Below the pieces are notes generated by a model. That model was not told the DNA's origin and searched no databases. It saw nothing but the letters and a program-made list of their open reading frames with translations. Below, piece after piece: positions 1 to 63,341 of a stretch of 64,000 nt of DNA. Position 1 is the first letter of the stretch, and each line of letters starts with the position of its first letter. Location: NCBI GenBank assembly GCA_963708045.1, contig OY970181.1, positions 707,740-771,739 on the forward strand, written 5' to 3'. The DNA comes from an uncultured bacterium. GTDB lineage: Bacteria; Patescibacteriota; Patescibacteriia; CAIQCM01. The position numbers and the translations under genes are program-made.

Positions 1-713
1 TTGGTTTTTCTGGTGGTCATAATCGGCTCTTTGGGGTGGTTGACGCGCCGTATGTGTTTTGTGTTAATCAAGACGTTGTCTTGGACAATGATTATCTAAA
101 AGAAATTATTAAAACGTTTGATGCCGATAAACGTCTTGCCGCCGCCTCGGGCGTCTTGCGCCACGACGACGGAAAAATTGATACGGCCGGTCTTGCCAAA
201 AATTGGTACGAAAAGATTTTTGACATAACTAAAGAACCGTCAATCCCAATCACGCGCGTTTTTGGTGTGTCTGGCGCTCTGCCGGTTTATCGCCGAGCGG
301 CGGTTCTTGAGGTTTCGCCGGATGGTAAATTATTTGATGAAAGTTTTTTTTCTTACAAAGAAGATGTGGATTTGGCGTGGCGGCTAAATATTTTTAACTG
401 GCACGCTTGCGTCGTTTCTGGGGCGAGAGCAATTCACGAACGGGGTTTTGGTTCTGATAAAAAATGGGACGCGGCGCGGTTTGTCCGGCAAAAACTATCT
501 TCACGAAACCATCTTTTAACTTTGGTTAAAGACCTATCACCTCGCGAATTTTGGTTGCTCCCAGTGATCGTGTTTTATGAACTCGGGAAAACCGTATATT
601 TGGCGATTTTTGTGCCCAATGCCCTTGGTTTTATTCTGGAATTTTTTAAGATATTGCCTAACGCGCTTAAAGCCCGTAAAGTGATCTGGTCGCGGCTTCG
701 CGCCGCTCGTTGA
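1..713 (+). CDS. Glycosyltransferase family 2 (5'-truncated at window edge)
   Basis: Reading frame is open from nt 3 with no upstream stop; GT2-like C-terminal region (YKEDVDLAWR acidic motif typical of GT2 catalytic base region). Listed ORF starts at GTG 36 but gene likely continues upstream of the window. Confidence 0.6.
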   Translation, partial: GFSGGHNRLFGVVDAPYVFCVNQDVVLDNDYLKEIIKTFDADKRLAAASGVLRHDDGKIDTAGLAKNWYEKIFDITKEPSIPITRVFGVSGALPVYRRAAVLEVSPDGKLFDESFFSYKEDVDLAWRLNIFNWHACVVSGARAIHERGFGSDKKWDAARFVRQKLSSRNHLLTLVKDLSPREFWLLPVIVFYELGKTVYLAIFVPNALGFILEFFKILPNALKARKVIWSRLRAAR

Positions 714-6773: not shown

Positions 6774-6846
6774 GTAACAACTTTTAACTGTTAACTTTTA
6801 GGTTTTAGCAAGCCACTAACAGTTAAAAGTTAATAGTTAACAGTTG
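6774..6846. repeat. Intergenic heptamer-unit inverted repeat, family 4 (AACTGTT/AACTTTT ... AAAAGTT units)
   Basis: taacaacttttaactgttaacttttagg...ctaacagttaaaagttaatagttaacagttg immediately upstream of rarA start. Confidence 0.8.
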
Positions 6847-9305: not shown

Positions 9306-11113
9306 TGATTAAGAATTTTTCACGAAAAAAAAATTCTTTAGGCACGGTCGTTCGCGACCGTATTTTGGCTGGTCTCGCGGTTTTTATCGGGTTAGTTTGT
9401 CTCGTCCGCCTTTTTCAACTACAAGTTTTGGATGCTTCGTTTTATAAAGCTTTGGCCAGCGGCCAGCGCAATGTTTTTTCAAAATTAATCCCCGAACGCG
9501 GCGACATTTTGGTGCGCGATGCTGGTGGAAAAGAATATGCCGTCGCCGCCAATCGCGATATGTGGATGGTCTATGCTGATAATCGCAAAATAACCGACCC
9601 AGCCGCAACGGCCAAGGCGCTCGCGCCACTCCTTGTCGCGCCGGTTTTGGAAAAAGATAAAACACCAGAAGTAATTGTTGAAGAAAAAAAAGCAGCGCTG
9701 GCTACAAAAGAAGAAGAATTAAAAAAACGCTTGTCCGTTTCAACTAATGCGTATAATCCCTTGGCGCACGAATTGGATGACGTCGCTTGTACTGCTATTA
9801 AGTCGCTCGGTATCGCGGGAATTGAATTTACGCCGGAAAAAATTCGTTATTATCCCGATCAAAAATTTGGCGGCCAAGTGCTTGGTTTTTTTGGTTATGA
9901 AGGAAATGAAAAAGTCGGACGTTATGGGATAGAGGGCTATTGGGAAAAAGAGCTGGCTGGTACGCAAGGATTTTTAAAAAGCGAAAGCGATCCGCATGGC
10001 CGGACGATTACCGTTGCCAATACTTCTTTTCGCGAAAAGCAGGACGGCGCTGACCTTGTCCTCACGATTAATCGGACGCTTCAAGACGCTAGTTGTGGCT
10101 GGCTTGATGATTGGGTGAAACAACATGGCGCGAGCTCGGGTTCGCTCGTGATGCTGGATCCAAAAACCGGCGCGATAATGGCGATGTGTGGCTCGCCAAA
10201 TTTTGATCCAAATAATTATGAAAAAGTCGGGTCATCCGGCGATTACAACAATGCCGCCATTTGGAACGCTTATGAACCCGGATCGGTAATGAAAGCCATA
10301 ACCATGTCGGCGGCGCTGGATCAGGGCAAAGTAACCCCGACTACGACCTATACTGATTTTGGCGAACTTACGATTAACGGAAAGGTAATTAAAAATTCCG
10401 AACCAAATCCCTTTGGTGTTCAAACGATGATTCAGGTTTTGGATAATTCGCTCAACACTGGCGCGATTTTTGCGATGCGCCAAATTGGCGGCACGATGTT
10501 AAAAAATTATTTGTTCGCTTTTGGTTTTGGAAAAAAATTAGGCATAGAAACCGATACCGAATCGCCAGGAAATTTAGCCAGCCTTGACCAGAATCGTGAA
10601 ATTTTTGCCGCAACAGCCTCGTTTGGACAGGGGATTACGACCACTGTTCTTCAACTGGCTTCGGCTTACGGAGTAATGGCTAATGGTGGAAAGTTGATGA
10701 AGCCATATGTTGTTGATGAAGTTCGCAATTACGACGGGAAAATTGTAAAAACCGCGCCAAAATTAATTGGGCAAGCGATTTCCGAACACGCCGCCAATTT
10801 GATTACCGGTATGCTTGTTTCGGTGGTAAAAAATGGTCACGGCAAGCGTGCCGGCGTTCCTGGGTATCTTGTTGCTGGAAAAACCGGCACAGCGCAAATT
10901 CCGCGTATGGATGGCCTTGGTTATGAAGATAAGGATACAATCGGAACGTTTGCCGGCTATGCCCCAGTTTCCGACCCAAAATTTGTTTTGGTGGTGCGCG
11001 TTGACAGGCCGCAAGATGTTCAGTTTGCTGAAAGCTCGGCCGCGCCGCTTTTTGGCAAGATTGCCGCTTATACCTTGCAATACTTAGGCATTCCACCGGA
11101 TGATGTTAAGTGA
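9305..11113 (+). CDS. Penicillin-binding protein (FtsI/PBP2-type transpeptidase)
   Basis: N-terminal TM anchor, dimerisation domain, SxxK (GSVMK), SxN (LNTG) and KTGTA motifs. Confidence 0.85.
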   Translation: MIKNFSRKKNSLGTVVRDRILAGLAVFIGLVCLVRLFQLQVLDASFYKALASGQRNVFSKLIPERGDILVRDAGGKEYAVAANRDMWMVYADNRKITDPAATAKALAPLLVAPVLEKDKTPEVIVEEKKAALATKEEELKKRLSVSTNAYNPLAHELDDVACTAIKSLGIAGIEFTPEKIRYYPDQKFGGQVLGFFGYEGNEKVGRYGIEGYWEKELAGTQGFLKSESDPHGRTITVANTSFREKQDGADLVLTINRTLQDASCGWLDDWVKQHGASSGSLVMLDPKTGAIMAMCGSPNFDPNNYEKVGSSGDYNNAAIWNAYEPGSVMKAITMSAALDQGKVTPTTTYTDFGELTINGKVIKNSEPNPFGVQTMIQVLDNSLNTGAIFAMRQIGGTMLKNYLFAFGFGKKLGIETDTESPGNLASLDQNREIFAATASFGQGITTTVLQLASAYGVMANGGKLMKPYVVDEVRNYDGKIVKTAPKLIGQAISEHAANLITGMLVSVVKNGHGKRAGVPGYLVAGKTGTAQIPRMDGLGYEDKDTIGTFAGYAPVSDPKFVLVVRVDRPQDVQFAESSAAPLFGKIAAYTLQYLGIPPDDVK

Positions 11114-11200
11114 GGTGTTAGGTTTTAGGTATCAGGTGTTAGGTTTTAACATACGACCTTTGACCTGTAACCTTGAACCTTGCACCTTGAACCTAATAAC
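11114..11200. repeat. Intergenic heptamer-unit inverted repeat, family 3 (AGGTGTT/AGGTTTT ... AACCTTG units)
   Basis: aggtgttaggttttaggtatcaggtgttaggtttta...acctttgacctgtaaccttgaaccttgcaccttgaacctaa. Confidence 0.8.
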
Positions 11201-11203
11201 AAT

Positions 11204-12493
11204 ATGAAAAACCTTATTGAAAAAATATTGTCCGCGCTTGCAAGCGCGATCATAAAAAAGTATAAGCCGATGGTGGTCGCGGTTACTGGTTCGGCTGGTA
11301 AGACCTCGGCCAGAGAAGCGATTTACGCGGCGGTAAATACCGAGTTTGACGCGCGCGCTTCGCTAAAAAATTATAATAACGACCTTGGCTTGCCGCTTTC
11401 AATCATCAACGCTAAGTCGGTCGGAAAAAATATTTTTAGCTGGCTTAAAATTATTGCACGCGGCGTTTCGTTTATTGTTTTTTTGCGGCGTTTTCCCGGC
11501 GTTTTAATTTTAGAAATGGCGGCTGATCATCCGGGCGACCTCGCACGGCTCGTAAAAATTGCACCGCCGAATGTTTCCGTTATTACCTCAGTCGGTTCGG
11601 CGCATATGGAATTTTTCGGTTCCGAAAGCGCGATTGCCGAAGAAAAAGCAACCCTTGTTCATGCGCTGACCGTTGATGGCGTTGCTGTTTTGAATGCTGA
11701 CGATTCGCGGGTTAATGGTATGCGCTCGACTTGCAAAGGAAAAATTATAACTTTTGGAATAGACAATGTTGCCGACGTTCGTGCGACAAAAATTGAATAT
11801 CTTCGCGACACGCAATCGCTTGCGGTAACCGGACTTTGTGTTGAAGCCGCAATTAAAAATCAAAAAGTAAATTTTATTCTTCATGGTGCGATCGGAAAAA
11901 ATCATGTCTTGGCCGCGCTGGCTGGTTTGGCCGCTGCTTATGCGTTAAAAATAAAACCAGAAACCGCCGCGCTAAATTTGGAAAAAATAAAACTCGCCCC
12001 TGGTCGGTCGCATTTAATTCCGGGCATAAAAGAAACAATGATTATTGACGACTCATACAACGCTTCGCCGGCAACGGTTTTAAGTGCCTTAGTGGCGTTA
12101 AAAGATTATCCGGTCGTCGGAAACGGCCGACGCATTGCGCTTATCGGCGATATGCTTGAGCTTGGTGGCTATACCGAAACCGCGCATAAAAATGTTGGCG
12201 AAACGGCGGCAAGACTTGGTATTGATTTTTTGTACGGTGTTGGCGAACGAATGCACGACGCTTGCACCGCGGCGCGCGCCGCGGGAATGGGGGAGGAACA
12301 AATTATTCATATGGAAAATGCCGGCTCGGCCGCGCGCTTTCTTCAGGAACGTTTGCATCCAAACGACGTGATTTTAATTAAGGGCTCGCAAGGAATGCGC
12401 ACTGAACGCGCCGTCCGCGAACTAATGCTTGAACCGGAAAAAGCCGAAGAACTTCTTTGTCGGCAGGGGAAGGAGTGGGTGGATGGCACGTAG
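11204..12493 (+). CDS. murF: UDP-N-acetylmuramoyl-tripeptide--D-alanyl-D-alanine ligase (MurF)
   Basis: VVAVTGSAGKTS P-loop, Mur ligase middle/C-terminal motifs (DDSYNASP). Start moved to ATG 11204; upstream TTG lies inside the repeat. Confidence 0.85.
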   Translation: MKNLIEKILSALASAIIKKYKPMVVAVTGSAGKTSAREAIYAAVNTEFDARASLKNYNNDLGLPLSIINAKSVGKNIFSWLKIIARGVSFIVFLRRFPGVLILEMAADHPGDLARLVKIAPPNVSVITSVGSAHMEFFGSESAIAEEKATLVHALTVDGVAVLNADDSRVNGMRSTCKGKIITFGIDNVADVRATKIEYLRDTQSLAVTGLCVEAAIKNQKVNFILHGAIGKNHVLAALAGLAAAYALKIKPETAALNLEKIKLAPGRSHLIPGIKETMIIDDSYNASPATVLSALVALKDYPVVGNGRRIALIGDMLELGGYTETAHKNVGETAARLGIDFLYGVGERMHDACTAARAAGMGEEQIIHMENAGSAARFLQERLHPNDVILIKGSQGMRTERAVRELMLEPEKAEELLCRQGKEWVDGT

Positions 12494-12576
12494 CACGTGG
12501 CATGTGGCATGTGGCATGTGGCGTGTGGCACGTAGCACGTAGCGCGTGGCTTGTAGTACGTGATACGTAGTAGGTG
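12491..12576. repeat. Tandem heptamer array, family 2 (GCACGTG/GCATGTG/GCACGTA, ~11 units), overlapping murF stop
   Basis: tagcacgtggcatgtggcatgtggcgtgtggcacgtagcacgtagcgcgtggcttgtagtacgtgatacgtagtaggtgg; 7-nt periodicity; second copy at 19046-19092. Confidence 0.8.
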
Positions 12577-12604
12577 GTTACTGTGGAATTAATGAAAAAA
12601 TCTT

Positions 12605-12646
12605 TCGCATCACATTAAATCGCGATCGCGATTTAATGTGATGCGA
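12605..12646. repeat. 42-bp perfect palindrome centred on CGATCG
   Basis: tcgcatcacattaaatcgcgatcgcgatttaatgtgatgcga (perfect inverted symmetry). Confidence 0.85.
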
Positions 12647-12663
12647 GTAAATATTTGAATAAA

Positions 12664-12691
12664 CGAAAACCCTTGAGACACTCAAGGGTTT
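12664..12691. terminator. Bidirectional intrinsic terminator hairpin
   Basis: aaaacccttgagacactcaagggtttt: 10-bp GC-containing stem flanked by A-run and T-run. Confidence 0.6.
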
Positions 12692-12718
12692 TGCGGTTAA
12701 GAGGAAGTGACGGTTTGT

Positions 12719-13315
12719 TTATTTGTCCGGTAGAACGCCGGGGTGGGTGAAGCTGAAAAAGGCTTGGCCTGTTCTTTGGCTTATTTCCCCCCTGAGCGGT
12801 CCGACCGATATGCCGGGATAGACCGTGAAAATCTCCAGACTCCAACCACCCCCAATGCGCATGAAGTCGCAGGAAAAAGTCACGGCATAGGTGAGCATTG
12901 CTAAGTGATGCGTGCCTTGTTTGACCCTAAGCCCAGTACAGCTTCTGTTAAGGCCAAAGGGTTCAAGATCGTCAACTTCAAAGAGCGTGAGCGGCGCGGT
13001 TGAGGACCAGCCAACCTGACGAGAGTGGGTGACGGAAAAATACCTTTGCCGTTCACGGGAGCCGATGATGGCGTTGGTGATACTCGGCAATTCAGCGCAA
13101 AATCGCTGAACGAAATCTCCGTCGGCAAAAACTTCGTTAAAGTTGCGCCAAAGCAAGAAGTTGCCGGCAAGCGGTTCGCCACCTGGTCGGAAACAGGTGT
13201 TTCTAAGGCAAAGCTCAACAGTATCTCGACAGTAGACGGTTGTGTCGGCAAACCCAGGAATACGAAGGAACCGTGAGAACGCTACGTGTGATGGCATCGT
13301 GTGAATCCTTTGCAC
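12719..13315 (-). CDS. Hypothetical protein (198 aa)
   Basis: Long ORF in GC-richer DNA, divergent from 13541 gene; no recognisable domain. Confidence 0.45.
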   Translation of the reverse strand: MQRIHTMPSHVAFSRFLRIPGFADTTVYCRDTVELCLRNTCFRPGGEPLAGNFLLWRNFNEVFADGDFVQRFCAELPSITNAIIGSRERQRYFSVTHSRQVGWSSTAPLTLFEVDDLEPFGLNRSCTGLRVKQGTHHLAMLTYAVTFSCDFMRIGGGWSLEIFTVYPGISVGPLRGEISQRTGQAFFSFTHPGVLPDK

Positions 13316-13381
13316 GTTGTTACTGCCCCATTGTTAACTGTGGTAGCGGGCATCCGAAGATGATATTCTAACTCGCTGTTT

Positions 13382-13424
13382 TCGTCAAGGATCATTGACG
13401 AAACAGATAAAATATGATATAAAC
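13382..13424 (+). promoter_or_regulatory. Sigma70-like promoter (TTGACG-17-TATAAA) with near-palindromic operator tcgtcaaggatcattgacga overlapping -35
   Basis: tcgtcaaggatcattgacgaaacagataaaatatgatataaa; same operator recurs at 14819-14837. Confidence 0.55.
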
Positions 13425-13540
13425 TAACGTTGTTCTTTGACTGAAATTACGATCAGAATCAGGAATCTTTAGCTGAATTTTCGGCCGATGGTTCTTGATT
13501 CTGATTCATACCAAACCACAAAAATTGGACAGGAGCCGCT

Positions 13541-13915
13541 ATGATCAATGCATTCTTTTCACTCACGTCGCTTGTTGGTGGTATCAGTTCTGGGCGGTTT
13601 AGCCAGAATGATCTAGACACTGGTTTTTTCTGCCTTCTTCGGGAACGGCGGTTCGTGATGGATCAACCCGGGGAACTTCCTGGGACGGCTGAGGATTATC
13701 AACAAGTTGTTCGTGCGATTCAACAAGCTGAGAGTGATGGTCGTGCTCTTTGGTTTGATGGAATCCCAACCTACGGTCCGCTCTATGATTTTCTTCAGAA
13801 AAACGGTTTCCTTGAACTTGTTCAGGCAATCGGACGTAGGAGAGAAGATCGCTTGGTGTGTAGTGTCGTTCAAAAAGCGGCAATGAGTTTCAAAATCACG
13901 TTTATCTATTTTTGA
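13541..13915 (+). CDS. Hypothetical protein (124 aa)
   Basis: ORF following promoter/operator, 5'UTR contains inverted repeat atcagaatcaggaatc...gttcttgattctgat. Confidence 0.45.
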   Translation: MINAFFSLTSLVGGISSGRFSQNDLDTGFFCLLRERRFVMDQPGELPGTAEDYQQVVRAIQQAESDGRALWFDGIPTYGPLYDFLQKNGFLELVQAIGRRREDRLVCSVVQKAAMSFKITFIYF

Positions 13916-13927
13916 GTCGCGATTTCT

Positions 13928-13978
13928 TCACCCACCACAAAAGCATTCACTGCTTCCGTGGTGGGTGTTTTTGTTTTT
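13928..13978 (+). terminator. Intrinsic terminator (island terminator family)
   Basis: cacccaccacaaaagcattcactgcttccgtggtgggtgtttttgtttttt: 10-bp stem + T-run. Confidence 0.7.
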
Positions 13979-14020
13979 TAATTCTTCCAACTTTTTCCGA
14001 TCGGAAAAAGTTGGAAGAAT
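13979..14020. repeat. 42-bp perfect palindrome centred on CGATCG (copy 1 of 2 near-identical)
   Basis: aattcttccaactttttccgatcggaaaaagttggaagaatt; near-identical copy at 15581-15622. Confidence 0.85.
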
Positions 14021-14140
14021 TTAAAAATAGAAAGTCAAAGGAATTAAGTCTAATTCTTGACATAACCTCTCTGAAGTATCGGCAGGGAAATACGTGGTTC
14101 TTTGAGTTTAGAATGTGGGAAGTGATATAATAACGTCGTT

Positions 14141-14656
14141 ATGACGAAGTGTTGTTTTCGCACACAAACACCAAACCGTGCGGCGTTCACACTGGTTGAA
14201 CTTTTGGTTGTGATTGCGATTATTGGCTTGCTTTCAACAATCGCGGTGGTGGCTTTGGGTTCGGTGAGAAGGCAGGCGCGAAACACCAAACGGATTGCCG
14301 ATGTTAAACAGCTTGTAACAGCTTTTAGTTTGGGACTTGATGCCAATGGCACCTATCCGTCGTCTGGTGGCGATGTTTACGCCTGTATTGCTTCAACTTG
14401 TACCGCCAGTTGGAGTGGCTTTGCCCCCAACGAGATAGTTAACACCTTTTTTCAAACGTATATGGCAACCAAGCCAACAGACCCCAATGACAATAATTCT
14501 CGTTTGCAAGGCGGATATCTTTATAACGGACAAGACCCCTCCCTTGGAGGTGTTCCTGGAATAAATTACCTCCTTGAGCCGCCAGCCACTTGCGGAGTTG
14601 GGCAACTCATCGGAACGAACGCAAACTACGTTTGGTGTGGCGTTAAGCTTGAGTAA
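14141..14656 (+). CDS. Type IV pilin-like protein (class III signal peptide)
   Basis: N-terminal prepilin motif RAAFTLVELLVVIAIIGLLSTIAVVAL (conserved with the other pilins in this window); C-terminal Cys pairs. Confidence 0.7.
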   Translation: MTKCCFRTQTPNRAAFTLVELLVVIAIIGLLSTIAVVALGSVRRQARNTKRIADVKQLVTAFSLGLDANGTYPSSGGDVYACIASTCTASWSGFAPNEIVNTFFQTYMATKPTDPNDNNSRLQGGYLYNGQDPSLGGVPGINYLLEPPATCGVGQLIGTNANYVWCGVKLE

Positions 14657-14712
14657 GTGTTATTGGCACTCGTTGTAAACTTTTAGCTCAATACTCCACG
14701 CTAATGGATAAC

Positions 14713-14862
14713 TTTATAAATAGGGTCAGGTCTGATTTTAAATGTAAAAAAATTTTAGATTGAATGTTGGGGTTTTGGTTGACACATTAGGTGGCGCAGT
14801 GGGTATAGAACGCGGGGTTCGTCAAGGATCATTGACAAAGTGTTAAAAAACCGTATACTTTT
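14713..14862 (+). promoter_or_regulatory. Conserved ~100-nt upstream module (copy A) + operator cgtcaaggatcattgaca overlapping TTGACA-16-TATACT promoter
   Basis: tttataaatagggtcagg...ttaggtggcgcagtgggtatagaacgcggggttcgtcaaggatcattgacaaagtgttaaaaaaccgtatact. Confidence 0.55.
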
Positions 14863-14900
14863 TTTGACTGAAGAAACTCGGAAACAAAAGGGGGAAAAGG

Positions 14901-15455
14901 ATGAAAAATTTGATGTTCGTTTTGGTTGCGCTCTTTGCAATAAACTGCAGTTCGTCGGATGGTGGCAAAACGTCTTCGCCTGCGGGTGTGAACGCACCCG
15001 CTCTAATTTGCGGAAGCGATGTCTCTTGCGGAGGTGATCTTTCTGGGGAATGGCTCGTCACGGAAACGTGCATGAGCAAAGAATTTCGGGATAATTTTGA
15101 CAAACTTTCAAAGGGGAATTCTTACCAATCATGCGTTTCGTCGGCGGAAATGAAACTACTCTCGCCTGGTGTTGTGGTGACATTTCCGAATGGGAATTGG
15201 TTCACCAATGATAGTATCAAAATCGTTCTTGAGTATTCAATGTCAGAGGCTTGCCTGCAAAAGTACGGTAAGAATTGTGCTGTGATGGGAACAAATTTGG
15301 ACTGTTCGCTCACCAACAACGATCTCTGTACGTGTGCTACGATTCCAGAGGGAACGGAAGAACAGGAATCAATGCACAACTACTGCGTTCAGGGCGACAC
15401 GCTCGTATTTTCCACCGGCGTTGGCGTGGCTTTTTTTCTTACGCGGATGAAATAA
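14901..15455 (+). CDS. Cysteine-rich putative lipoprotein (184 aa)
   Basis: Strong RBS aaagggggaaaaggATG; signal peptide with lipobox-like LFAINC; ~12 Cys. Confidence 0.6.
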   Translation: MKNLMFVLVALFAINCSSSDGGKTSSPAGVNAPALICGSDVSCGGDLSGEWLVTETCMSKEFRDNFDKLSKGNSYQSCVSSAEMKLLSPGVVVTFPNGNWFTNDSIKIVLEYSMSEACLQKYGKNCAVMGTNLDCSLTNNDLCTCATIPEGTEEQESMHNYCVQGDTLVFSTGVGVAFFLTRMK

Positions 15456-15495
15456 AAGACAATACCAAACAGCGTAGGGTGCGACTTAATCTCAC

Positions 15496-15546
15496 ACCCG
15501 CGACAAAAGCACCTACTGCTTCTTTCGCGGGTGTTTTTGTTTTTGA
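15496..15546 (+). terminator. Intrinsic terminator (island terminator family)
   Basis: cacccgcgacaaaagcacctactgcttctttcgcgggtgtttttgtttttg. Confidence 0.7.
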
Positions 15547-15580
15547 ATTTTTTTGTATGTGATTATATTTTTATTTTTTA

Positions 15581-15622
15581 AATTCTTCCGACTTTTTCCG
15601 ATCGGAAAAAGTCGGAAGAATT
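15581..15622. repeat. 42-bp perfect palindrome centred on CGATCG (copy 2)
   Basis: aattcttccgactttttccgatcggaaaaagtcggaagaatt. Confidence 0.85.
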
Positions 15623-15637
15623 ATAATAGATGGAAAA

Positions 15638-15770
15638 TTTATAAAATATGGACAAGCTATATTTATGATAAAAATACCGAGATTGAATCTTGGGATTTTT
15701 AAGTGGCGCAATGAATATAGAACGCGGGGACTAAGTATCTTGACAAAATGGCCAAAATATAGTAAGAGTT
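15638..15770 (+). promoter_or_regulatory. Conserved upstream module (copy B) with promoter-like hexamers
   Basis: tttataaaatatggacaagctatatttatgataaaaataccgagattgaatcttgggatttttaagtggcgcaatgaatatagaacgcgggg...cttgacaaaatggccaaaatatagt. Confidence 0.5.
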
Positions 15771-15820
15771 CAGTAGCTGCTTAAAAAAGCAGCTCCTCTC
15801 AACATAGGAAGGAGCTCGGA

Positions 15821-16627
15821 ATGCAGACACAACACGATCAGACCAGGAGCGCTATTCCCTCCATTGCCACTAAATCTGTGGCATCCGCGAGATATGGTAT
15901 AGACAACCCGCCGCTATCTGAAGAATCGGCTGCCACGCGAATAGAGACTCTGGTTGGCGAAATTCAGGTCGTTGAAACAGACTTGGAGATGAGCAACCCC
16001 GAGACATATGCAGGTTTGGGAACCTATGCCGAGTGGCGCAAACGCGCGGTTAGTGCGCTCGGACACATAAAGAAGGAACTCAAGTTCCTGCGTCGATGGG
16101 TTGATCAACAACGTGTGGCGAAAAAAGCGGCCAAGCGCCAGGTCGCCGACGAGTCCGCCATCCGTAATTACGAAGGACTCGGCATTATCGCTCGCGGGAT
16201 CAAGGCTCGAGCAATCGAGTTGGCGGTGAAAATTGGTGGGGCGTATGAGGTGCGCTATAGAGAGTCCGTCTCGCCCCCTGATTTGCTAACAGCGATTGCA
16301 AGACGCACCGAGCTCGTCGCAATCAAGGAAAGTTTGGGGGATGCTTTTCAGGAAATAACGGCTGCGTGGACCAGTCATCCGTTGCGTCGTGAAGAGATGG
16401 GTGTTGCCAAGGCACCGCTCAATAAAATCCTCAAATGCGTTGAAAGGGAACTTGGTGTGATAAAGGTGTACATCGCTCAGAGTACACCTCGACAACCCAC
16501 TCCAGTTGCTGGATGGAAGACTATCTGCATTGGTTTTTTCGAGAGGATGCTCGAAAACGGCGCTGATTTAACTCAGGAAGAAGTGGCAGTATTGGTTTGG
16601 TTAAAAGCCACCAAGATGCCTGCCTAG
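15821..16627 (+). CDS. Hypothetical protein (268 aa)
   Basis: RBS aggaaggagctcggaATG; hairpin agctgcttaaaaaagcagct in 5'UTR; no recognisable domain. Confidence 0.5.
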   Translation: MQTQHDQTRSAIPSIATKSVASARYGIDNPPLSEESAATRIETLVGEIQVVETDLEMSNPETYAGLGTYAEWRKRAVSALGHIKKELKFLRRWVDQQRVAKKAAKRQVADESAIRNYEGLGIIARGIKARAIELAVKIGGAYEVRYRESVSPPDLLTAIARRTELVAIKESLGDAFQEITAAWTSHPLRREEMGVAKAPLNKILKCVERELGVIKVYIAQSTPRQPTPVAGWKTICIGFFERMLENGADLTQEEVAVLVWLKATKMPA

Positions 16628-16641
16628 ACGTCCACAACCCG

Positions 16642-16687
16642 CACCCGCGACAGAAGTATTCGTTACTTCTCTCGCGGGTGTTTTTTA
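16642..16687 (+). terminator. Intrinsic terminator (island terminator family)
   Basis: cacccgcgacagaagtattcgttacttctctcgcgggtgttttttaag: ~17-bp stem, one mismatch. Confidence 0.75.
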
Positions 16688-16761
16688 AGTTTTTTTTAAG
16701 GATTGACAGATGCTTTAAACTGGGTTGATATAGAAGAGCCATTTATGGGCGAGGAGGGAAA

Positions 16762-17532
16762 ATGAATCCTTATATAGGCATAACCGATTTCACCGAATCG
16801 AATCAAGTTCGTCGCATACTCGAAGTATTTCATACTGTTTTTCCTGATGGTACGAATTGGCGTCTGCATGTCGGCGTGATGATGAGTTACAAAACACTCA
16901 GAGGGTTGCCGACAAAGTGGCAAGCATCTTTTCCGGCCAAGGAAAAAATCGCCAGCATTTTCTTTTCTCATGAGGCCTATAACTGTCTGCACTACGCCGA
17001 CTACGACGCCAATCATGAACTGTCAAAAATCTTGAGTGAGGCGATTTGTTGGTGCGGGCGCGGATTAAACGCTGTTCAGCTTGATATGATCTGGCCTAAC
17101 CCCGGGGAAGTCGCAGAAGCAATTCATCGTTCACGCATAAACATTGAGGTCATTCTACAGCTTGGCGCAAACGCTCTGGCGGAAACAGGTGGTGATCCAG
17201 CTGTCACTGTGAACCGTCTTCGCGATTACGAAGGAGTAATCCACCGTGTGCTCATTGACAAGAGCATGGGTCGCGGGCTCGTCATGGACGCCAACGTGCT
17301 TCTTCCTTTCGTTTCCGCCATCCGACAACATTTCCCGACATTGGGCATAGGCGTGGCTGGTGGTCTGGGGCCAGGCACGGTCGAGGCGGCACAACCACTC
17401 CTTAGAGCTTTTCCTGATCTAAGTATTGACGCCCAAGGACGACTTCGTCCAAGTGGAAACGCTCTGGATCCAATTGATTGGGATATAGCCTCGGAATACC
17501 TAGTTCAAGCCGCCTCAATCATTAGAGAATAG
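16762..17532 (+). CDS. TIM-barrel protein resembling phosphoribosylanthranilate isomerase (TrpF-like)
   Basis: YIGITDF (cf. KICGIT), GLNAVQLDM (cf. LNAVQLHG), VLIDKSMGRGLVMD, IGVAGGLGPGTV (cf. LSGGLNPENV) pattern match recalled TrpF motifs; not verified by search. Confidence 0.4.
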   Translation: MNPYIGITDFTESNQVRRILEVFHTVFPDGTNWRLHVGVMMSYKTLRGLPTKWQASFPAKEKIASIFFSHEAYNCLHYADYDANHELSKILSEAICWCGRGLNAVQLDMIWPNPGEVAEAIHRSRINIEVILQLGANALAETGGDPAVTVNRLRDYEGVIHRVLIDKSMGRGLVMDANVLLPFVSAIRQHFPTLGIGVAGGLGPGTVEAAQPLLRAFPDLSIDAQGRLRPSGNALDPIDWDIASEYLVQAASIIRE

Positions 17533-17567
17533 ACTCTCAAACGAAGGAAATACGACCCTCGTTTCAC

Positions 17568-17607
17568 ACCCGCGACAGAAGTATTCGTTACTTCTCTCGC
17601 GGGTGTT
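17568..17607 (+). terminator. Intrinsic terminator (near-identical to 16642-16687)
   Basis: cacccgcgacagaagtattcgttacttctctcgcgggtgtttttgtttttt. Confidence 0.75.
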
Positions 17608-17652
17608 TTTGTTTTTTAATTTTTGTATATTGTAATTTAAATAGACGAAAAA

Positions 17653-17785
17653 TTTATAAATAGGATCAAGCTATGCTTCTGATAAAAAATACTGAGATTA
17701 AATCCTGAAATTTTTAAGTGGTGCGTTGGATATGGAAGGGGGGATTAAAGTCGGCTATTGACTTTTTGATGACTGCGAACTATTC
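17653..17785 (+). promoter_or_regulatory. Conserved upstream module (copy C) followed by TTGACT-17-TATTCT promoter
   Basis: tttataaataggatcaagctatgcttctgataaaaaatactgagattaaatcctgaaatttttaagtggtgcgttggatatggaagggggg...ttgactttttgatgactgcgaactattct. Confidence 0.5.
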
Positions 17786-17847
17786 TTTTGAATCCTTTTG
17801 GCAAGGCCGAAGGTAAAGTTCTGTAAACAAAAACAACGGGGGTTGTC

Positions 17848-18768
17848 ATGGGCTATTACGAAGAACGAAGACTCGAGCTTGCGCAAGAATTAGGTGAACA
17901 GGTAGCTTTAGTTGTCAAGATTGGAGATAGGCTGGTTCATGGGCGAGCTGTTCTTGGTGAGTTGGAACAAAAACACGCTCGGGTATCATGGTTTCCAGTT
18001 GCTGGTAATGTTGACGCGGCTGGATTGCGACTTACGGAGGCAAGGGAAAGGCTAGTCAAAGCGGTCGGGTATTTAGGGAATTGTGATCGTCAGGCGATTA
18101 ACCAAATGGACGTCTTGATTGACACGGCACGCCAGCGTTTGCTCCAGGCGAGCAACTGCATAGAATCGCTTACGGTTTGTCGCGATACACTTGCAGAACT
18201 AGAAAAAGGCTCGAGGCTTAACGTTCCAAGATTGTCTGAATTGTTAGTTGTGGCAAGTCGCTGTTCTCAAGATAGCGATATGACGGAGGTTAACAATTTA
18301 ATGCGTCAAACTAGTGACGAAGATGGCAAACAACACCCCGACCTTCTACTGATCGCTGATTTGCACGGTCGCGCTGAAGTGGCTCTAAATAGTATTTTGG
18401 CGAAGCGTGGAGATTCGCGAATGGTTGAATGGGAAACAAGGCGTCTTGGGAACGTTCAGTTTGTTGCGAGAATAATTATCAAACTCTTGGAGCAGTACGT
18501 GCTTGACCACTATGAGGCTTTTGTTCCTCAGCCGCCGGATCTCTCCGCCCTCCGAACGCTTCTCAGTTTGTCTGAGTTCGGGCCGCCACGACAAAATCTC
18601 AAAGTGCAGATGCAATATGCTGAGAGGGCATTGCGCGATGCTCGTGATAATCTCGTCAAGGCGGAAGCGGTGGGTGGTTGCTATGTCGGTGTGAAAGGGC
18701 GAACAAAAATGCAATATAACTTGGCCAGTTTGCACGGCGGCGATAATGCCGCACCAGATCCGCATTAA
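17848..18768 (+). CDS. Hypothetical protein (306 aa), predominantly alpha-helical-looking
   Basis: RBS acgggggttgtcATG; no recognisable domain; followed by hairpin cacccc/agggtg + T-run (18842-18872). Confidence 0.5.
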   Translation: MGYYEERRLELAQELGEQVALVVKIGDRLVHGRAVLGELEQKHARVSWFPVAGNVDAAGLRLTEARERLVKAVGYLGNCDRQAINQMDVLIDTARQRLLQASNCIESLTVCRDTLAELEKGSRLNVPRLSELLVVASRCSQDSDMTEVNNLMRQTSDEDGKQHPDLLLIADLHGRAEVALNSILAKRGDSRMVEWETRRLGNVQFVARIIIKLLEQYVLDHYEAFVPQPPDLSALRTLLSLSEFGPPRQNLKVQMQYAERALRDARDNLVKAEAVGGCYVGVKGRTKMQYNLASLHGGDNAAPDPH

Positions 18769-18964
18769 CCGAATGACTTAAGACAAACGACCTCGCCTGG
18801 TACGCCGGGCGGGGTTTTTCTTTATTTATAAAATACAAAAGACCACCCCGATTAAAGGGTGATCTTTTTTGCTGAGCCGACCTCGGTCCAAGTAGGCAAG
18901 CTAAGCTTGTCTTGTGGTAGCGAAGCTGAGCTTCGCCGTCATTCTTGAAACCGAGCTCTGCTCG

Positions 18965-19041
18965 GGTAGCCCCAACCGGATTTGAACCGGTGTATCCACG
19001 TTGAGAACGTGGCGTCCTAGGCCAGACTAGACGATGAGGCC
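18965..19041 (-). tRNA. tRNA-Glu (anticodon CUC)
   Basis: Reverse complement GGCCTCATCGTCTAGTCTGGCCTAGGACGCCACGTTCTCAACGTGGATACACCGGTTCAAATCCGGTTGGGGCTACC folds as cloverleaf: 7-bp acceptor with G1-U72 and U5-G68 wobbles, anticodon stem CCACG/CGTGG with loop TTCTCAA, T-arm ACCGG-TTCAAAT-CCGGT; strongly resembles bacterial tRNA-Glu D-arm (TCGTCTAG...AGGAC). Confidence 0.65.
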
Positions 19042-19045
19042 GTAT

Positions 19046-19092
19046 TGGCACGTGGCACGTAGCACGTGGCACGTAGTTTGTAGTCTGTGTTG
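19046..19092. repeat. Tandem heptamer array, family 2 (second copy)
   Basis: gcacgtggcacgtagcacgtggcacgtagtttgtagtctgtg directly abutting tRNA-Glu 5' end. Confidence 0.8.
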
Positions 19093-19186
19093 TTAAACAG
19101 AAAATATTATCACAATTTTAGAATAAAAAATCAATAGTCCCGTCGGCGTCGGCGGGACTATGTTGAGCGGGGAAGGGTGCGGCTAG

Positions 19187-19498
19187 TTAGTCGCCCAGTC
19201 CCTGTACTCGTGGCGGGTCGTTTGTGAGATGTGCTGTTCTGGGTACGCCGCTTCGCACTCTGACGCCTGATCTGATTCTCGGTCTTTTGCGGACAAGTTC
19301 TGTTGGCTCTGGTTCTTTCCATGTTTTTAAAATCAACAGAATGGCGAACAGTATTGAAACTAGGGGTAAACCGATTAGAGGCGCTAAGTCACCATATTGA
19401 ATGTTTTCCCAGACGATGCTTTTGGGTGTGTTTTGTTCAAGGTATAGCGTCGCGGTAAACGGTACGACTACTCCGATGATTAAAAGAACGTTTTTCAT
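19187..19498 (-). CDS. Small hypothetical membrane protein (~104 aa, 2 TM)
   Basis: Start chosen at ATG with SD GGGAGGAATCAAGATG; longer listed ORF N-terminus is unlikely. Confidence 0.5.
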   Translation of the reverse strand: MKNVLLIIGVVVPFTATLYLEQNTPKSIVWENIQYGDLAPLIGLPLVSILFAILLILKTWKEPEPTELVRKRPRIRSGVRVRSGVPRTAHLTNDPPRVQGLGD

Positions 19499-19579
19499 CT
19501 TGATTCCTCCCAATGTTTTCCGACAAATAAATTTATCACGCCGCGTTTTAGGCGTCAATGTTGACCGCAAAGCGCCGGC

Positions 19580-20296
19580 GTGGGAATATTTGAGCGTATG
19601 TTAAATGCTTTAAGCTGGTTCTGGGATAAATTTTTGTACGCGCCGCTATTTAATGCGTTAATTTGGCTTTATAACGGACCGGCCGACCAAAATTTGGGCG
19701 CGGCGGTTATTTTGCTAACCATCGGCATTCGCCTTCTAATTTTGCCGGTTTCAATTTTAGCGGAACGCAGTAAGCATATTTACGTTACGGTTGAAGAAGA
19801 AATTTTGGAAATTGAAAAACAGCATAAAAACGATCCGGAAATTCAAAAAGAACGGATTCGCGAACTTTTGCGCAAACGTCACGTGTCGCCGTGGTCGCGG
19901 GTGGCCTCACTTGGGCTCCAGCTTTTAGTGCTCATCATTTTGTACCAGGTATTTATGGATGGTATTAAAATGAGTAACTTTAAAGCGCTCTATCCGTCCG
20001 TTATCCACCCTGACATTGTCTTTACTTATTTTTGGGGAATTAATTTGGGCGCGCGCGATTGGATCGGCGCGGCGGTCATCGCCCTTTGGTTATATTTTGA
20101 AATTAGTCACGATCAAAAAAAACACGGCGAAAGCGTAACTAAGGCTGATATTTTTTATCGCGTGGCGTTTCCGATTTTTTCCTTTGTCGCGCTTTATTGG
20201 TTGCCGTCGGTTAAGTCCCTCTTTATCTTGACCTCTATGATCTTTTCCGTTATAATCAGCTCATTCAGAAAGATATTTTTCGGGCACAAAGAATAA
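19580..20296 (+). CDS. yidC: Membrane protein insertase YidC/Oxa1 family (short form)
   Basis: LTIGIRLLILPVSI conserved YidC TM2 motif, multi-TM; start could be 19595. Confidence 0.75.
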   Translation: MGIFERMLNALSWFWDKFLYAPLFNALIWLYNGPADQNLGAAVILLTIGIRLLILPVSILAERSKHIYVTVEEEILEIEKQHKNDPEIQKERIRELLRKRHVSPWSRVASLGLQLLVLIILYQVFMDGIKMSNFKALYPSVIHPDIVFTYFWGINLGARDWIGAAVIALWLYFEISHDQKKHGESVTKADIFYRVAFPIFSFVALYWLPSVKSLFILTSMIFSVIISSFRKIFFGHKE

Positions 20297-20884: not shown

Positions 20885-20923
20885 TTGACGAACTAATTAG
20901 CACTCTATACAATAGAGTGCTAA
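20885..20923 (+). promoter_or_regulatory. hrcA promoter (TTGACG-17-TACAAT) with perfect CIRCE operator TTAGCACTC-N9-GAGTGCTAA
   Basis: ttgacgaactaaTTAGCACTCtatacaataGAGTGCTAAaat; CIRCE consensus 20897-20923. Confidence 0.9.
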
Positions 20924-20932
20924 AATGTTTTT

Positions 20933-21592
20933 ATGAAGAAACTAGAGGTCAGAAAGGAAACAATTCTGGATTCTTTGGTTAGAGAATACGTAAAAACCGC
21001 CGAGCCGGTAAGTTCGCTGTACCTTTCGGAAAAAGCCGAGTTGGCGGTTTCTTCGGCAACGGTTAGAAATGAATTGGCCGATTTGGAAAACGAGGGGTTT
21101 CTTGTTCAGCCGCATACGTCCGCCGGCCGTATTCCAACCGAAAATGCTTACCGGTATTTTGTTGAATATTTGTCGCGGCCGCAAAAAAACGACAGCGTTT
21201 TTGTTGCTCGGCTGCAATCGTTTTTTAAAGAACGCGACGACGCCAAAGCCGCGGCCAAGATGCTGGCGGCCGAAACTAAGGAATGCGTTTTTGTTCTGTT
21301 TGAACCGAATGATACCTATTATACCGGACTGACTAATCTTTTTTCGCAGCCGGAATTTGGCGAGCGCGAGATTGCCTTAAATATTTCCGGCGCCCTTGAT
21401 CAGTTGGACGAAGCTGTGTCCAAATTAAAACACGAAGGCGGCGTTAAAACGCTTATTGGTCGCGAGTGTCCGCTTGATCGGCGCTCTTCAATTGTTTATG
21501 TGGGCGCTGGAAAGCGGATCGTCGGTGTTGTTGGGTTGGTGCGAATGGATTACGAAAAAATTATTGGGCTCTTAAATTCACTCAATAAATAA
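20933..21592 (+). CDS. hrcA: Heat-inducible transcription repressor HrcA (short form)
   Basis: AEPVSSLYLSEK...VSSATVRNELADLENEGFLVQPHTSAGRIPTENAYRYFV matches HrcA N-terminal wHTH; preceded by CIRCE. Confidence 0.85.
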   Translation: MKKLEVRKETILDSLVREYVKTAEPVSSLYLSEKAELAVSSATVRNELADLENEGFLVQPHTSAGRIPTENAYRYFVEYLSRPQKNDSVFVARLQSFFKERDDAKAAAKMLAAETKECVFVLFEPNDTYYTGLTNLFSQPEFGEREIALNISGALDQLDEAVSKLKHEGGVKTLIGRECPLDRRSSIVYVGAGKRIVGVVGLVRMDYEKIIGLLNSLNK

Positions 21593-21657
21593 CTGTTAAC
21601 TGTTAACTTTTAACTATTAGGTTGCTAAAAGTTAAAAGCTAAAAGTTAAAAGTTAAT
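21591..21657. repeat. Intergenic heptamer-unit inverted repeat, family 4
   Basis: aactgttaactgttaacttttaactattaggttgctaaaagttaaaagctaaaagttaaaagttaat. Confidence 0.8.
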
Positions 21658-22238: not shown

Positions 22239-22290
22239 AAAAACGGATTAGGTATTAGATATTAGAAATTAGATATTAATAATAAAATAT

Positions 22291-25621: not shown

Positions 25622-25712
25622 TTAAGAGGTTTCAGGTTCAAGGTTCAAGGTTTTAGGTGATTAACGTTACGACGTGCTACCTAACACCTAACACCTAAAA
25701 CCTTGAACCTAA
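25622..25712. repeat. Intergenic heptamer-unit inverted repeat, family 3 (second copy)
   Basis: ggtttcaggttcaaggttcaaggttttaggtg...cacctaacacctaacacctaaaaccttgaacctaaac. Confidence 0.8.
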
Positions 25713-38097: not shown

Positions 38098-39720
38098 ATG
38101 TTAGGAAAATTTTGGAATAACGAATCAAAGACCATAACTTCTGCCGCCATTCTTTTGGGCGGCGCGTCGCTGGCTTCAAAAGCTTTGGGCGTACTTCGTG
38201 ATCGGACACTTGCTGGTGTTTTTGGCGCCGGCGATACACTTGATGCCTACTATGCGGCCTTTCGTTTGCCGGATATGATTTTTAATTTGCTTGTCGCTGG
38301 CGCTCTTTCGGCTGGCTTTATTCCCGTGATTGCGGAATATTTTTTACGCGATCGCCAAAATAAGACCGGAACAGCTTGGAAATTGACCAACGAAATGATG
38401 AGTGTTCTCGCGGTGTTACTTTTGGTTCTTTCTGGCTTGGCCGCGCTTTTGGCTCCCTACCTTATCCCAATGATCACGCCGGGATTTTCCGGTGCCAAGC
38501 TTGAACTCACGATCCATTTGTCACAGATAATGTTCGTCTCGCCAATTGTGATGGGTATTTCCGCGATTCTTGGTGGTGTCCTTCAGAGCACAAAAAGATT
38601 TTTGTTTTTCGCTGCGGCGCCACTTTTTTATAATGCCGGAATTATTTTTGGTGCGCTTGTTTTTTGCCGGTATTTTGGAACTTATGGTTTGGCAATGGGC
38701 GTTGTTTTGGGCGCTCTTCTCCATCTTATTATTCAATTAGTTCCCGTTCGCAAACTCGGTTGGCGTCCGCGTTTTTCTTTGCCAAGCGACGGGGGAGTTA
38801 AAAGAATCTTTTTGCTTTCCGCGCCGCGCGTGCTTTCGATGGCCGTTTCGCAGATTGATCTCGTCGCCGCGACAATCGTCGCTTCGCTCCTTGCGACCGG
38901 CGCTGTTTCTATCATCAATTTGGCAAGTAATTTGCAAGCGGTGCCGGTTTCGTTTATCGGCATTTCATACGCGGTCGCGGCTTTTCCCGCGCTTTCCCGC
39001 CTTGCGGCTGAAAATAACAAAAGCGAATTCATTAATAATGTGAGCCGAGTTAGTCGGCAAATTTTGTTTTTTGTTGTGCCTTTTGCTGCCTTGTTTTTAT
39101 TACTTCGTGCGCAAACCGTTCGCTTGGTTTTGGGAAGTGGCAATTTTGATTGGAACGATACAATTCGCACCGCCGACGCCTTGGCGTTTTTTTCGCTGTC
39201 CATTCCGGCACAGGCGATCGTTCCGCTGCTTGCCCGTGCCTTTTATTCTTTAAAGGATTCAACAACGCCGCTCCTTGTTGCACTCGTTGCCGTTGGTGCT
39301 GATATTATTGGTAATTTGACTTTGGGACGAATGATGGGCGTAGCTGGTTTGGCGCTCTCGTTTACAATTTCATCATATATCTACGCAATGTTGCTTTGGG
39401 TAATGTTGCGGTTAAAACTGGGGACGCTTTTAGAAAGTCAGGTTGTTAAATCGCTTGCCAAGATAACGGTTGCTGTTGCCCCGATGGCACTCGTTGTTCA
39501 ACTTGTTAAAACGGCAATTGGCGGGTTTGTTAATATGCAAACGTTTGTTGGTGTTGCGATCCAGTTTGTTATTGCCGGCGGCGCAGGGATTATTGTTTAC
39601 TGTGGCGTCGCTGCTTTGGTTAAGTCTGATGAAGCTAATTCGTTATTAATGTCGCTCCGGCGGCGGATGGGTTTTAAAGACTTGCCGCTTATGGAAGCCG
39701 ATGAAGTGGTGGAAGTATGA
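38098..39720 (+). CDS. murJ: Lipid II flippase MurJ (MviN)
   Basis: ASKALGVLRDRTLAGVFGAGDTLDAYYAAFRLPDMIFNLLVAGALSAGFIPV matches MurJ N-terminus; 14 TM. Confidence 0.85.
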   Translation: MLGKFWNNESKTITSAAILLGGASLASKALGVLRDRTLAGVFGAGDTLDAYYAAFRLPDMIFNLLVAGALSAGFIPVIAEYFLRDRQNKTGTAWKLTNEMMSVLAVLLLVLSGLAALLAPYLIPMITPGFSGAKLELTIHLSQIMFVSPIVMGISAILGGVLQSTKRFLFFAAAPLFYNAGIIFGALVFCRYFGTYGLAMGVVLGALLHLIIQLVPVRKLGWRPRFSLPSDGGVKRIFLLSAPRVLSMAVSQIDLVAATIVASLLATGAVSIINLASNLQAVPVSFIGISYAVAAFPALSRLAAENNKSEFINNVSRVSRQILFFVVPFAALFLLLRAQTVRLVLGSGNFDWNDTIRTADALAFFSLSIPAQAIVPLLARAFYSLKDSTTPLLVALVAVGADIIGNLTLGRMMGVAGLALSFTISSYIYAMLLWVMLRLKLGTLLESQVVKSLAKITVAVAPMALVVQLVKTAIGGFVNMQTFVGVAIQFVIAGGAGIIVYCGVAALVKSDEANSLLMSLRRRMGFKDLPLMEADEVVEV

Positions 39721-39789
39721 AACATGAACCATGTACCATGAACCATCCGTTTGGTACATGGTACATGGTTAATGGTTCATGTAAAAAAT
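39721..39789. repeat. Intergenic heptamer-unit inverted repeat, family 1
   Basis: aaacatgaaccatgtaccatgaaccatccgtttggtacatggtacatggttaatggttcatg. Confidence 0.8.
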
Positions 39790-51122: not shown

Positions 51123-51250
51123 CGTATGTACCATGAACCACACACCATGAACCATATGTAATTTGGTATGCGGTACATGTTTCATGTTTTATGGTACATG
51201 GTACATGGTGCGTGGTACATGGGATATGGTGTGTGGTATAATGTGTGTAC
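51123..51250. repeat. Intergenic heptamer-unit inverted repeat, family 1 (largest copy, ~128 nt)
   Basis: gtaccatgaaccacacaccatgaaccat ... atggtacatggtacatggtgcgtggtacatgggatatggtgtgtggtat; right arm ~7 tandem (A/G)TGGT(A/G)C units. Confidence 0.85.
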
Positions 51251-63305: not shown

Positions 63306-63341
63306 GTCTAAAAGTTAATAGTTAACAGTTAAAAGTTAAAC
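63306..63341. repeat. Intergenic heptamer-unit repeat, family 4 (third copy)
   Basis: ctaaaagttaatagttaacagttaaaagttaaacg just upstream of dnaG. Confidence 0.75.

Follow-up and report, generated by a model that had tools for sequence, protein, structure and literature searches.

Single palindromic operators govern divergent, back-to-back promoters in the tetO system (tetR/tetA) and in the bioO/BirA system (bioA-bioBFCD), and temperate phages carry near-identical operators, of the OL/OR type, at the two early promoters that flank their immunity region. Operators usually leave their central spacer free to vary. Here we describe a palindrome that resembles these arrangements in some respects and departs from them in others. 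It is present twice in a 64,000-nucleotide stretch of DNA (the window) taken from a contig of 1,188,223 bp belonging to a small-genome bacterium. The window contains many type IV pilins together with a pilus operon, and both copies of the palindrome lie inside a stretch of about 6.5 kb (the island) between murF and tRNA-Glu/yidC. The palindrome is a known kind of feature, and it may be a regulatory motif, for which it is at present an unproven candidate.

The 22-bp sequence TTCGTCAAGGATCATTGAC(G/A)AA is located at positions 13381–13402 (site 1) and 14818–14839 (site 2), and the copies are identical at 21 of 22 bases. The preliminary description of this DNA had reported an inverted repeat at both places; the repeat is confirmed and is 22 nt long, with one more base at its left end and one or two more at its right end. 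Site 1, TTCGTCAAGGATCATTGACGAA, is a palindrome in which 8-nt arms (TTCGTCAA and TTGACGAA) flank the spacer GGATCA and 10 of the 11 position pairs are symmetric. Site 2, TTCGTCAAGGATCATTGACAAA, has the same 6-bp spacer, is symmetric at 9 of 11 pairs, and differs by a single base, which makes its -35 hexamer the consensus TTGACA. The two copies are in direct orientation, 1,437 bp apart, with the same 8-6-8 layout and the same asymmetric spacer. Scanning the 64 kb with up to three mismatches finds the 22-mer at these two places and no third (0.00 expected from 100 shuffles). The looser pattern CGTCAA-N6-TTGACG, allowing up to two mismatches, is found 7 times in the window against 3.8 expected, which is no enrichment, and the other five occurrences are in coding sequence. 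The repeated palindrome at promoter -35 boxes is real and non-random. It is not a terminator, as its potential hairpins are weak (-8.7 and -4.9 kcal/mol) and a T-run is absent.

The right arm of each copy serves as the -35 hexamer of a well-spaced sigma-70-type promoter, in agreement with the earlier proposal (TTGACG-17-TATAAA and TTGACA-16-TATACT). The promoter of ORF 13541 (13395–13423, plus strand; hereafter promoter A) has its -35 hexamer TTGACG at 13395–13400 and, after 17 nt, its -10 hexamer TATAAA at 13418–13423; the predicted transcription start at about 13429–13430 places the dyad centre at about -38. The promoter of the 14901 gene (14832–14859, plus strand; promoter B) matches the consensus at 11 of 12 positions, with TTGACA at 14832–14837, a 16-nt spacer and TATACT at 14854–14859, and its predicted start at about 14866 places the dyad centre at about -37.5. 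Site 1 also lies in the divergent region that ORF 13541 shares with a minus-strand gene, as had been recognised, and the left arm of site 1 is the -35 box of that gene, which had been missed. This divergent promoter, found in a consensus scan, occupies 13360–13388 on the minus strand (-35 TTGACG at 13388..13383, 17 nt, -10 TATCAT at 13365..13360), with a predicted start near 13353 and the dyad centred at about -38.5. The palindrome thus concerns three transcription units instead of two, and their three promoters share the position of the dyad (about -37.5 to -38.5) on only two physical sites.

Site 1 has the organisation of back-to-back divergent sigma-70 promoters, with a -35 hexamer on each strand, a -10 hexamer 17 nt from each, and genes downstream on both sides; it amounts to two extended -35 boxes (TTGACRAA on each strand) set 6 bp apart. 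Because the left arm is the divergent -35 box, much of the palindromy of site 1 is explained without any repressor. The 'AA' that follows the -35 hexamer is common among the promoters of this genome, and once it is discounted we infer that the extra symmetry comes down to the central GATC alone (2 of 3 pairs), which is not significant. Site 2 is different in having no minus-strand gene and no -10 hexamer at 16–18 nt on the minus strand, which rules out a minus-strand promoter there, yet its left arm matches site 1 at 14 of 14 bases in spite of having no promoter use. The near-consensus -35 and -10 boxes suggest that all of these promoters would be strong unless repressed.

The island is made up of monocistronic units with repeated non-coding modules: a terminator hairpin in four copies, a perfect 42-nt palindrome in two, and an upstream module of about 110 nt in three (B before 14901, C before 15821, and F before 17848). 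It adjoins tRNA-Glu and is bounded by identical TGGCACG arrays. With the exception of one pilin, its ORFs have no family match in Pfam, NCBIfam, PHROG or PADLOC. The minus-strand gene served by the left arm of site 1 (12719–13297; ATG at 13297, ribosome-binding site AAAGGA) encodes a 192-aa member of a widespread uncharacterised family, and the same gene start is called in an independent assembly. Downstream of site 1 on the plus strand, behind a hairpin-containing leader of about 110 nt, is ORF 13541 (13541–13915), which encodes a 124-aa orphan; downstream of site 2, also on the plus strand, is the 14901 gene (14901–15455), encoding an orphan of 184 aa whose signal peptide precedes a cysteine (a putative lipoprotein). 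ORF 13541 and the pilin gene 14141 both lie between the two 22-mers. Logan contigs from two other samples have the same gene order and the same intergenic lengths, 243 and 244 nt. The GC skew is uniformly positive, which rules out a dif or terminus site. As duplicated non-coding modules fill the island, shared sequence alone does not imply a regulon.

The arrangement of shared sequence at site 2 is complex. The module upstream of promoter B (14698–14817, plus strand) is common to 15623–15729 and 17636–17743, and the homology ends exactly at the left edge of site 2. At the place of the 22-mer the paralogous promoter C (15730–15745, plus strand) has a degenerate counterpart, ACTAAGTATC-TTGACA, which is shorter than the B segment and keeps the -35 hexamer with the left arm lost, and promoter F has unrelated sequence. 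When promoters A and B are anchored on the 22-mer, the identity is 12/40 in the left flank, 21/22 in the 22-mer itself, 12/13 in a second block downstream, and 8/28 in the next 28 nt; the spacer and -10 region are poorly alignable and 10 nt shorter in B, and the surroundings of the two copies are otherwise unrelated (about 30% identity). The shared block begins and ends where the palindrome does, and in B its left edge is also where the B/C/F upstream homology ends. The second block, T(C/T)TTTGACTGAA, lies 30 and 20 nt downstream of sites 1 and 2 and reads TTCTTTGACTGAA at 13433–13445 and TTTTTTGACTGAA at 14860–14872 (both plus strand). Its exact 10-mer TTTGACTGAA starts 33 nt after site 1 and 23 nt after site 2, and is thus 10 nt (one helical turn) closer at site 2; it occurs only twice in the 64 kb, each time just downstream of a 22-mer, and the probability of such sharing by chance is about 0.01 from shuffles and about 0.03 from real upstream regions. 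The block also holds TTGACTGAA, which resembles the half-site TTGACGAA and starts 42 nt (site 1) and 32 nt (site 2) after the start of the right arm, equivalent to 4 and 3 helical turns. Judged by its sequence, promoter B is a mosaic of a C/F-like upstream module, a 22-mer identical to that of A save for the one base, an unrelated core, and a 13-mer shared with A.

Comparison with relatives shows which parts of the site 1 region persist. A metagenome contig of 1.4 kb (L007/L008) encodes a homologue of the 192-aa protein with 56% identity. Its gene is likewise divergently transcribed, and the intergenic region of L007 can be aligned with that of site 1 over its entire length (z = 10.7 relative to shuffles). 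Both -35 boxes and both -10 boxes are kept, as are the 5′ leader of the 192-aa gene and, on the opposite side, the leader with its hairpin, so that each of the two divergent promoters is conserved together with its leader. What is not kept is their distance: 18 extra nucleotides separate the -35 hexamers, which are 24 nt apart rather than 6, and the 22-bp dyad is absent. Among the more distant homologues, the L009 promoter reads TTGACT-17-TATAAT without any palindrome, an everted pair (TTGACGTTTTGTCAA) is present in L010/L011, and L012 has CGTCAA-ATG-TTGACGAA, with a 3-nt spacer. In none of these orthologous or homologous promoters (L007/L008, L009, L010/L011, L012) is a dyad of the same geometry conserved. 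Inverted -35-like hexamers do recur upstream of the 192-aa family at variable spacing, which, going by these alignments, is the behaviour of divergent promoters and not of a fixed-geometry operator.

The 14901 lipoprotein and ORF 13541 are orphans in homologue searches. Promoter A (from 13395 onwards), promoter C and the two L007 promoters form a loose family, TTGACRAAA..G..AAAATAT.RTATAAA..A.CGTTG, in which promoter A and L007-P2 match at 29 of 38 positions; when each member is left out in turn, nhmmer returns the omitted one as the best non-training match in three of four cases. Promoter B falls outside this family downstream of its -35 hexamer (14–18 of 38 positions identical; nhmmer E = 43). 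Because the spacer and -10 region of B are foreign to the family of A, the match between the 22-mers is not accounted for by a simple recent duplication of promoter A.

The preliminary description had advised a pattern search for additional copies as a means of defining a regulon. Run on the window and on public collections, this search yields just the two sites in 64 kb, and a 19-mer finds 2 genome-contig, 4 metagenome-contig and 0 viral-contig matches, none in a comparable context; these have unrelated, coding-like surroundings that differ in GC content, and are therefore regarded as chance matches. The proposed regulon of two unrelated genes is consistent with the exact reuse of the 22-mer, but three units are concerned and the window has no further copy. 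The earlier remark that a repressor is not obviously encoded nearby is correct, as no recognisable regulator gene is found near the sites. No DNA-binding domain is present in the eight ORFs scanned in or beside the island, and neither a scan of these eight for recombinases or integrases nor inspection by eye of the other window proteins revealed any. HrcA alone could be recognised as a regulator in the window, and its own CIRCE element, at 20897–20923, lies on the hrcA promoter.

Several other candidates were discarded. ORF 13541 does not qualify as a helix-turn-helix repressor, having no match in Pfam, NCBIfam or the PDB, and its AlphaFold model is unusable (single-sequence model, pLDDT 39). 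An Rfam E-value scan of 12400–19700 has only the tRNA above the gathering score and nothing at either site, and a known RNA family or riboregulator is accordingly rejected. Searches of PHROGs, of PADLOC and of phage and plasmid DNA gave nothing beyond generic pilin matches, and prophage, plasmid and defence-island explanations are accordingly discarded. A Dam-related role for the GATC at the dyad centre is discarded because GATC is neither avoided nor enriched (observed/expected 1.06). The literature on a CGTCAA/TTGACG operator yielded only primer coincidences. To our knowledge neither CIRCE, Fur/Zur, the lux-box nor the Spo0A 0A-box (TGNCGAA) fits the 22-mer in both sequence and spacing, nor do the sites of TnrA/GlnR (N7, not N8) or RutR (opposite orientation of the arms), and we treat these motifs as leads only.

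We tentatively propose, at somewhat less than an even chance, that the 22-mer is a candidate operator for a putative homodimeric repressor as well as a sigma-70-type promoter core; such a repressor is the best single functional reading of the element, although unproven. With the dyad centred near -38, a dimer bound across it would lie over the -35 bases that sigma region 4 contacts, and a dimer on each 22-mer would shut off all three promoters together; TTGACTGAA in the second block could be an auxiliary half-site facing the same side of the helix. The product of ORF 13541 could be the regulator, a positional guess from its small size and its place as the first gene behind site 1, between both sites. 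An operator for a dimeric repressor was also the earlier suggestion, and its geometry stands, with the dyad at about -38 and the right arm as the -35 box, but relatives do not share the dyad. The simplest explanation for two stretches of near-identity within promoter DNA that is otherwise unrelated is one shared sequence-specific protein contact. The operator is favoured by the repetition of the whole palindrome (21/22) where none is expected by chance, by the restriction of identity to the element with its edges at those of the palindrome, by the common dyad position in all three promoters, by the left arm of site 2, which has no promoter role yet is identical, and by the 10-mer TTTGACTGAA, present twice only and always behind a 22-mer; the CIRCE element on the hrcA promoter shows further that this genome does use promoter-overlapping palindromic operators. 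The restriction to two sites in 64 kb with public matches by chance alone counts against it, as does the lack of a DNA-binding domain in the eight scanned ORFs. The relatives also weigh against an operator: with half-sites 24 nt apart in L007/L008 a fixed-geometry dimer site is not conserved, and L009 has no palindrome, L010/L011 an everted pair and L012 a 3-nt spacer. Moreover, the two copies are also identical in the central spacer, a pattern that suggests copying rather than selection. The 22-mer may instead be a bidirectional promoter core of back-to-back TTGACRAA boxes with no dedicated regulator, a reading that is quite possible though on balance doubtful. The core would have been copied to site 2 by the same recombination or duplication processes that distributed the island's terminators, palindromes and upstream modules (four hairpins, two 42-nt palindromes and three modules of about 110 nt), leaving the left arm there as a passenger. 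It accounts for the correctly spaced -10 boxes of both site 1 arms, for L007 keeping both -35/-10 pairs but not the distance between them, for the recurrence of inverted TTGACG pairs at variable spacing upstream of other 192-aa family members, for the identity of the spacer bases, and for the absence of further sites and of a regulator gene; the prevalence of 'AA' after -35 boxes and the insignificance of the leftover symmetry fit it too. It does less well with the boundaries, since a neutral copy is expected to have flanking similarity or arbitrary ends, whereas here the ends are the palindrome edges and the flanks are at chance level. The second block (12/13) requires a second independent copying or a coincidence (p of about 0.01–0.03), and the core of promoter B is otherwise unrelated to that of A.

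The shape of the element also brings to mind the core site of a tyrosine-type recombinase, in which case the 22-mers would flank an excisable cassette of 1,437 bp (ORF 13541 and pilin 14141) and the -35 overlap would be secondary. The 8-6-8 layout, the asymmetric GGATCA and the common orientation of both sites all have the form of such a core, removal of one repeat with the intervening DNA would leave the divergent promoter pair intact, and the island is cassette-like, next to a tRNA-Glu and between identical TGGCACG arrays. We nevertheless consider this quite unlikely. The eight scanned ORFs encode no recombinase or integrase and none is evident by eye in the window; the intergenic lengths are the same in the contigs from other samples; the GC skew is not that of a dif or terminus site; and both copies have well-spaced -10 boxes that a pure att site does not need. 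In addition, L007 shows that the leader on the ORF 13541 side is the ancestral neighbour of the 192-aa gene, so the segment between the 22-mers is not a simple insertion. Combining recombination with regulation, the island could be an undescribed cassette array of small-genome uncultured bacteria, with the 22-mer as both the recombination core for a recombinase encoded in trans and a portable repressible -35 box, which we judge very unlikely. Monocistronic orphans would be shuffled in such an array among shared modules (the terminator hairpin, the 42-nt palindrome and the upstream module of about 110 nt), and the 22-mer would be a portable promoter/att hybrid serving any gene that lands behind it. 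Activation in place of repression is very unlikely. A class II site of the CRP/FNR type (22 bp, 5-N6-5) overlapping the -35 box is suggested by the core GTCAA-N6-TTGAC within the 22-bp dyad, but the centre is at about -38 and not at -41.5, the near-consensus -35 hexamers (TTGACG, TTGACA) and good -10 boxes make an activator unnecessary, and no CRP/FNR-family gene is seen in the window.

As a true operator, the 22-mer would join three orphan genes in one small regulon: that of the 192-aa family member, that of the 124-aa orphan and that of the orphan that is secreted or a lipoprotein. It would then be among very few cis-regulatory handles in a bacterium that is uncultured, has a reduced genome and possesses few transcription factors, as well as a simple bait for finding its regulator. 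Should it be no more than a duplicated promoter core, it would be a neat case of promoter copying in a hypervariable island but would have no broader implications. A specialist would find neither outcome surprising.

Each of the described systems shares some features with the 22-mer. CRP/FNR class II sites are similar in size, in 5-N6-5 symmetry and in overlapping the -35 box, and differ in the half-site, in the position of the centre and in the strength of the -35 boxes here. The dif, lox and att cores likewise have short inverted arms around a 6-bp asymmetric spacer, and the two direct-repeat copies are also like theirs; unlike them, the 22-mer is not accompanied by a recombinase among the ORFs scanned or located at the terminus, has arms of only 8 nt, and carries functional-looking -35 boxes. 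The CIRCE/HrcA element in this same window is also a palindrome overlapping a sigma-70-type promoter, but CIRCE is TTAGCACTC-N9-GAGTGCTAA and is placed between the -35 and -10 boxes; the 22-mer is of different sequence and is therefore not itself a CIRCE element. As with the phage OL/OR operators, two palindromic sites, nearly identical and separated by about 1.4 kb, lie on promoters and bracket a small gene, although there is one 22-mer per promoter in place of tandem operator arrays, the PHROGs and phage/plasmid searches reveal no phage genes, and the protein encoded between the sites has no recognisable helix-turn-helix. Finally, in contrast to tetO and bioO, the 22-mer has no recognisable cognate repressor gene nearby, its arms are the -35 hexamers themselves, its dyad is reused at a third, unidirectional promoter, and its geometry is not conserved in the nearest relative. 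Nonetheless, as in tetO and bioO, the dyad of site 1 is positioned between two divergent promoters and over polymerase contacts, an arrangement in which one dimer can block transcription in both directions.

The 5′ leaders on either side of the first copy of the 22-mer, the near-palindromic candidate operator, both have counterparts in L007, a 1.4-kb metagenome contig that encodes a 56%-identical homologue of the 192-aa protein. The leader of ORF 13541, the orphan gene divergent from the 192-aa gene, forms a long hairpin at 13451-13506 (forward strand), the leader folding with −35.8 kcal/mol and a z-score of −4.3. The homologous leader in L007, at about 615-668 (reverse strand), carries a hairpin of the same shape and in the same place (−31.2 kcal/mol, z-score −4.3) with a different sequence; the structure is conserved between the two. 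The leader of the 192-aa gene (13298-13352, reverse strand) is conserved at L007 785-842, the pattern common to both being CCGCTACC..AGTTAA..AATGGG..GT.AC...GCAAAGGA, and is without a match in an Rfam scan. L012 is a more remote locus of this protein family; two paralogues lie in tandem there (1389-2638), and the sequence CGTCAA-ATG-TTGACGAA (1144-1163) is located 8 nt 5′ of the murB start codon.

Between the genes of the orphan-gene island there are recurring non-coding modules of three kinds. The first is a terminator hairpin (CACCCGCGACAGAAGTA...), present in four copies (13929-13967, 15495-15533, 16642-16680 and 17567-17605); the second is a perfect 42-nt palindrome (AATTCTTCCRACTTTTTCCGATCGGAAAAAGTYGGAAGAATT), present twice (13980-14021 and 15581-15622); and the third is a promoter-upstream module of about 110 nt, present three times (14698-14817, 15623-15729 and 17636-17743). 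Contig breaks in the short-read assemblies of other samples seem to coincide with the repeated modules. A separate 42-nt palindrome, TCGCATCACATTAAATCGCGATCGCGATTTAATGTGATGCGA, is located at 12605-12646, where it separates the terminator of the 192-aa gene from the heptamer array; it shares a GATC centre with the 42-nt island palindrome and with the 22-mer.

Both flanks of the island carry arrays of the unit TGGCACG (12484-12562 and 19046-19076), which may mark the boundary of the island or be att-like repeats. The right-hand array adjoins the 5′ end of tRNA-Glu(ctc) (18965-19041, reverse strand), the 3′ end of which is directed towards the island. No integrase was found among the eight ORFs scanned in and beside the island. 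These two belong to a set of short tandem repeats of 7-nt period, in 3.6-9.6 copies, whose other members are located at 6817-6845, 11113-11194, 21590-21656, 22247-22278, 25679-25703, 39717-39746, 51172-51238 and 63309-63340; the arrays of the set are intergenic, mostly directly 5′ of start codons, and their units vary (TAACAGT, AGGTGTT, AACCTTG, TGGCACG, TAACTGT, TAAAAGT, ATTAGAT, ACCTAAC, ATGAACC and GGTACAT). Heptamer arrays appear to be a genome-wide feature.

Across the whole window, strong avoidance is seen for the tetranucleotide TCGA, which occurs 25 times where about 253 would be expected (ratio 0.10), and this low ratio suggests pressure from a putative TCGA-specific restriction system. 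Avoidance of GGCC and CATG is mild (observed/expected 0.64 and 0.70, respectively), and that of GATC is absent (1.06).

The window also contains an internal example of a promoter-overlapping operator that is useful for comparison. A canonical CIRCE element, TTAGCACTC-N9-GAGTGCTAA (20897-20923, within the stretch 20885-20923), overlaps the hrcA promoter, TTGACG-17-TACAAT, just 5′ of hrcA (20933), which is followed by grpE, hsp20, dnaK and dnaJ.
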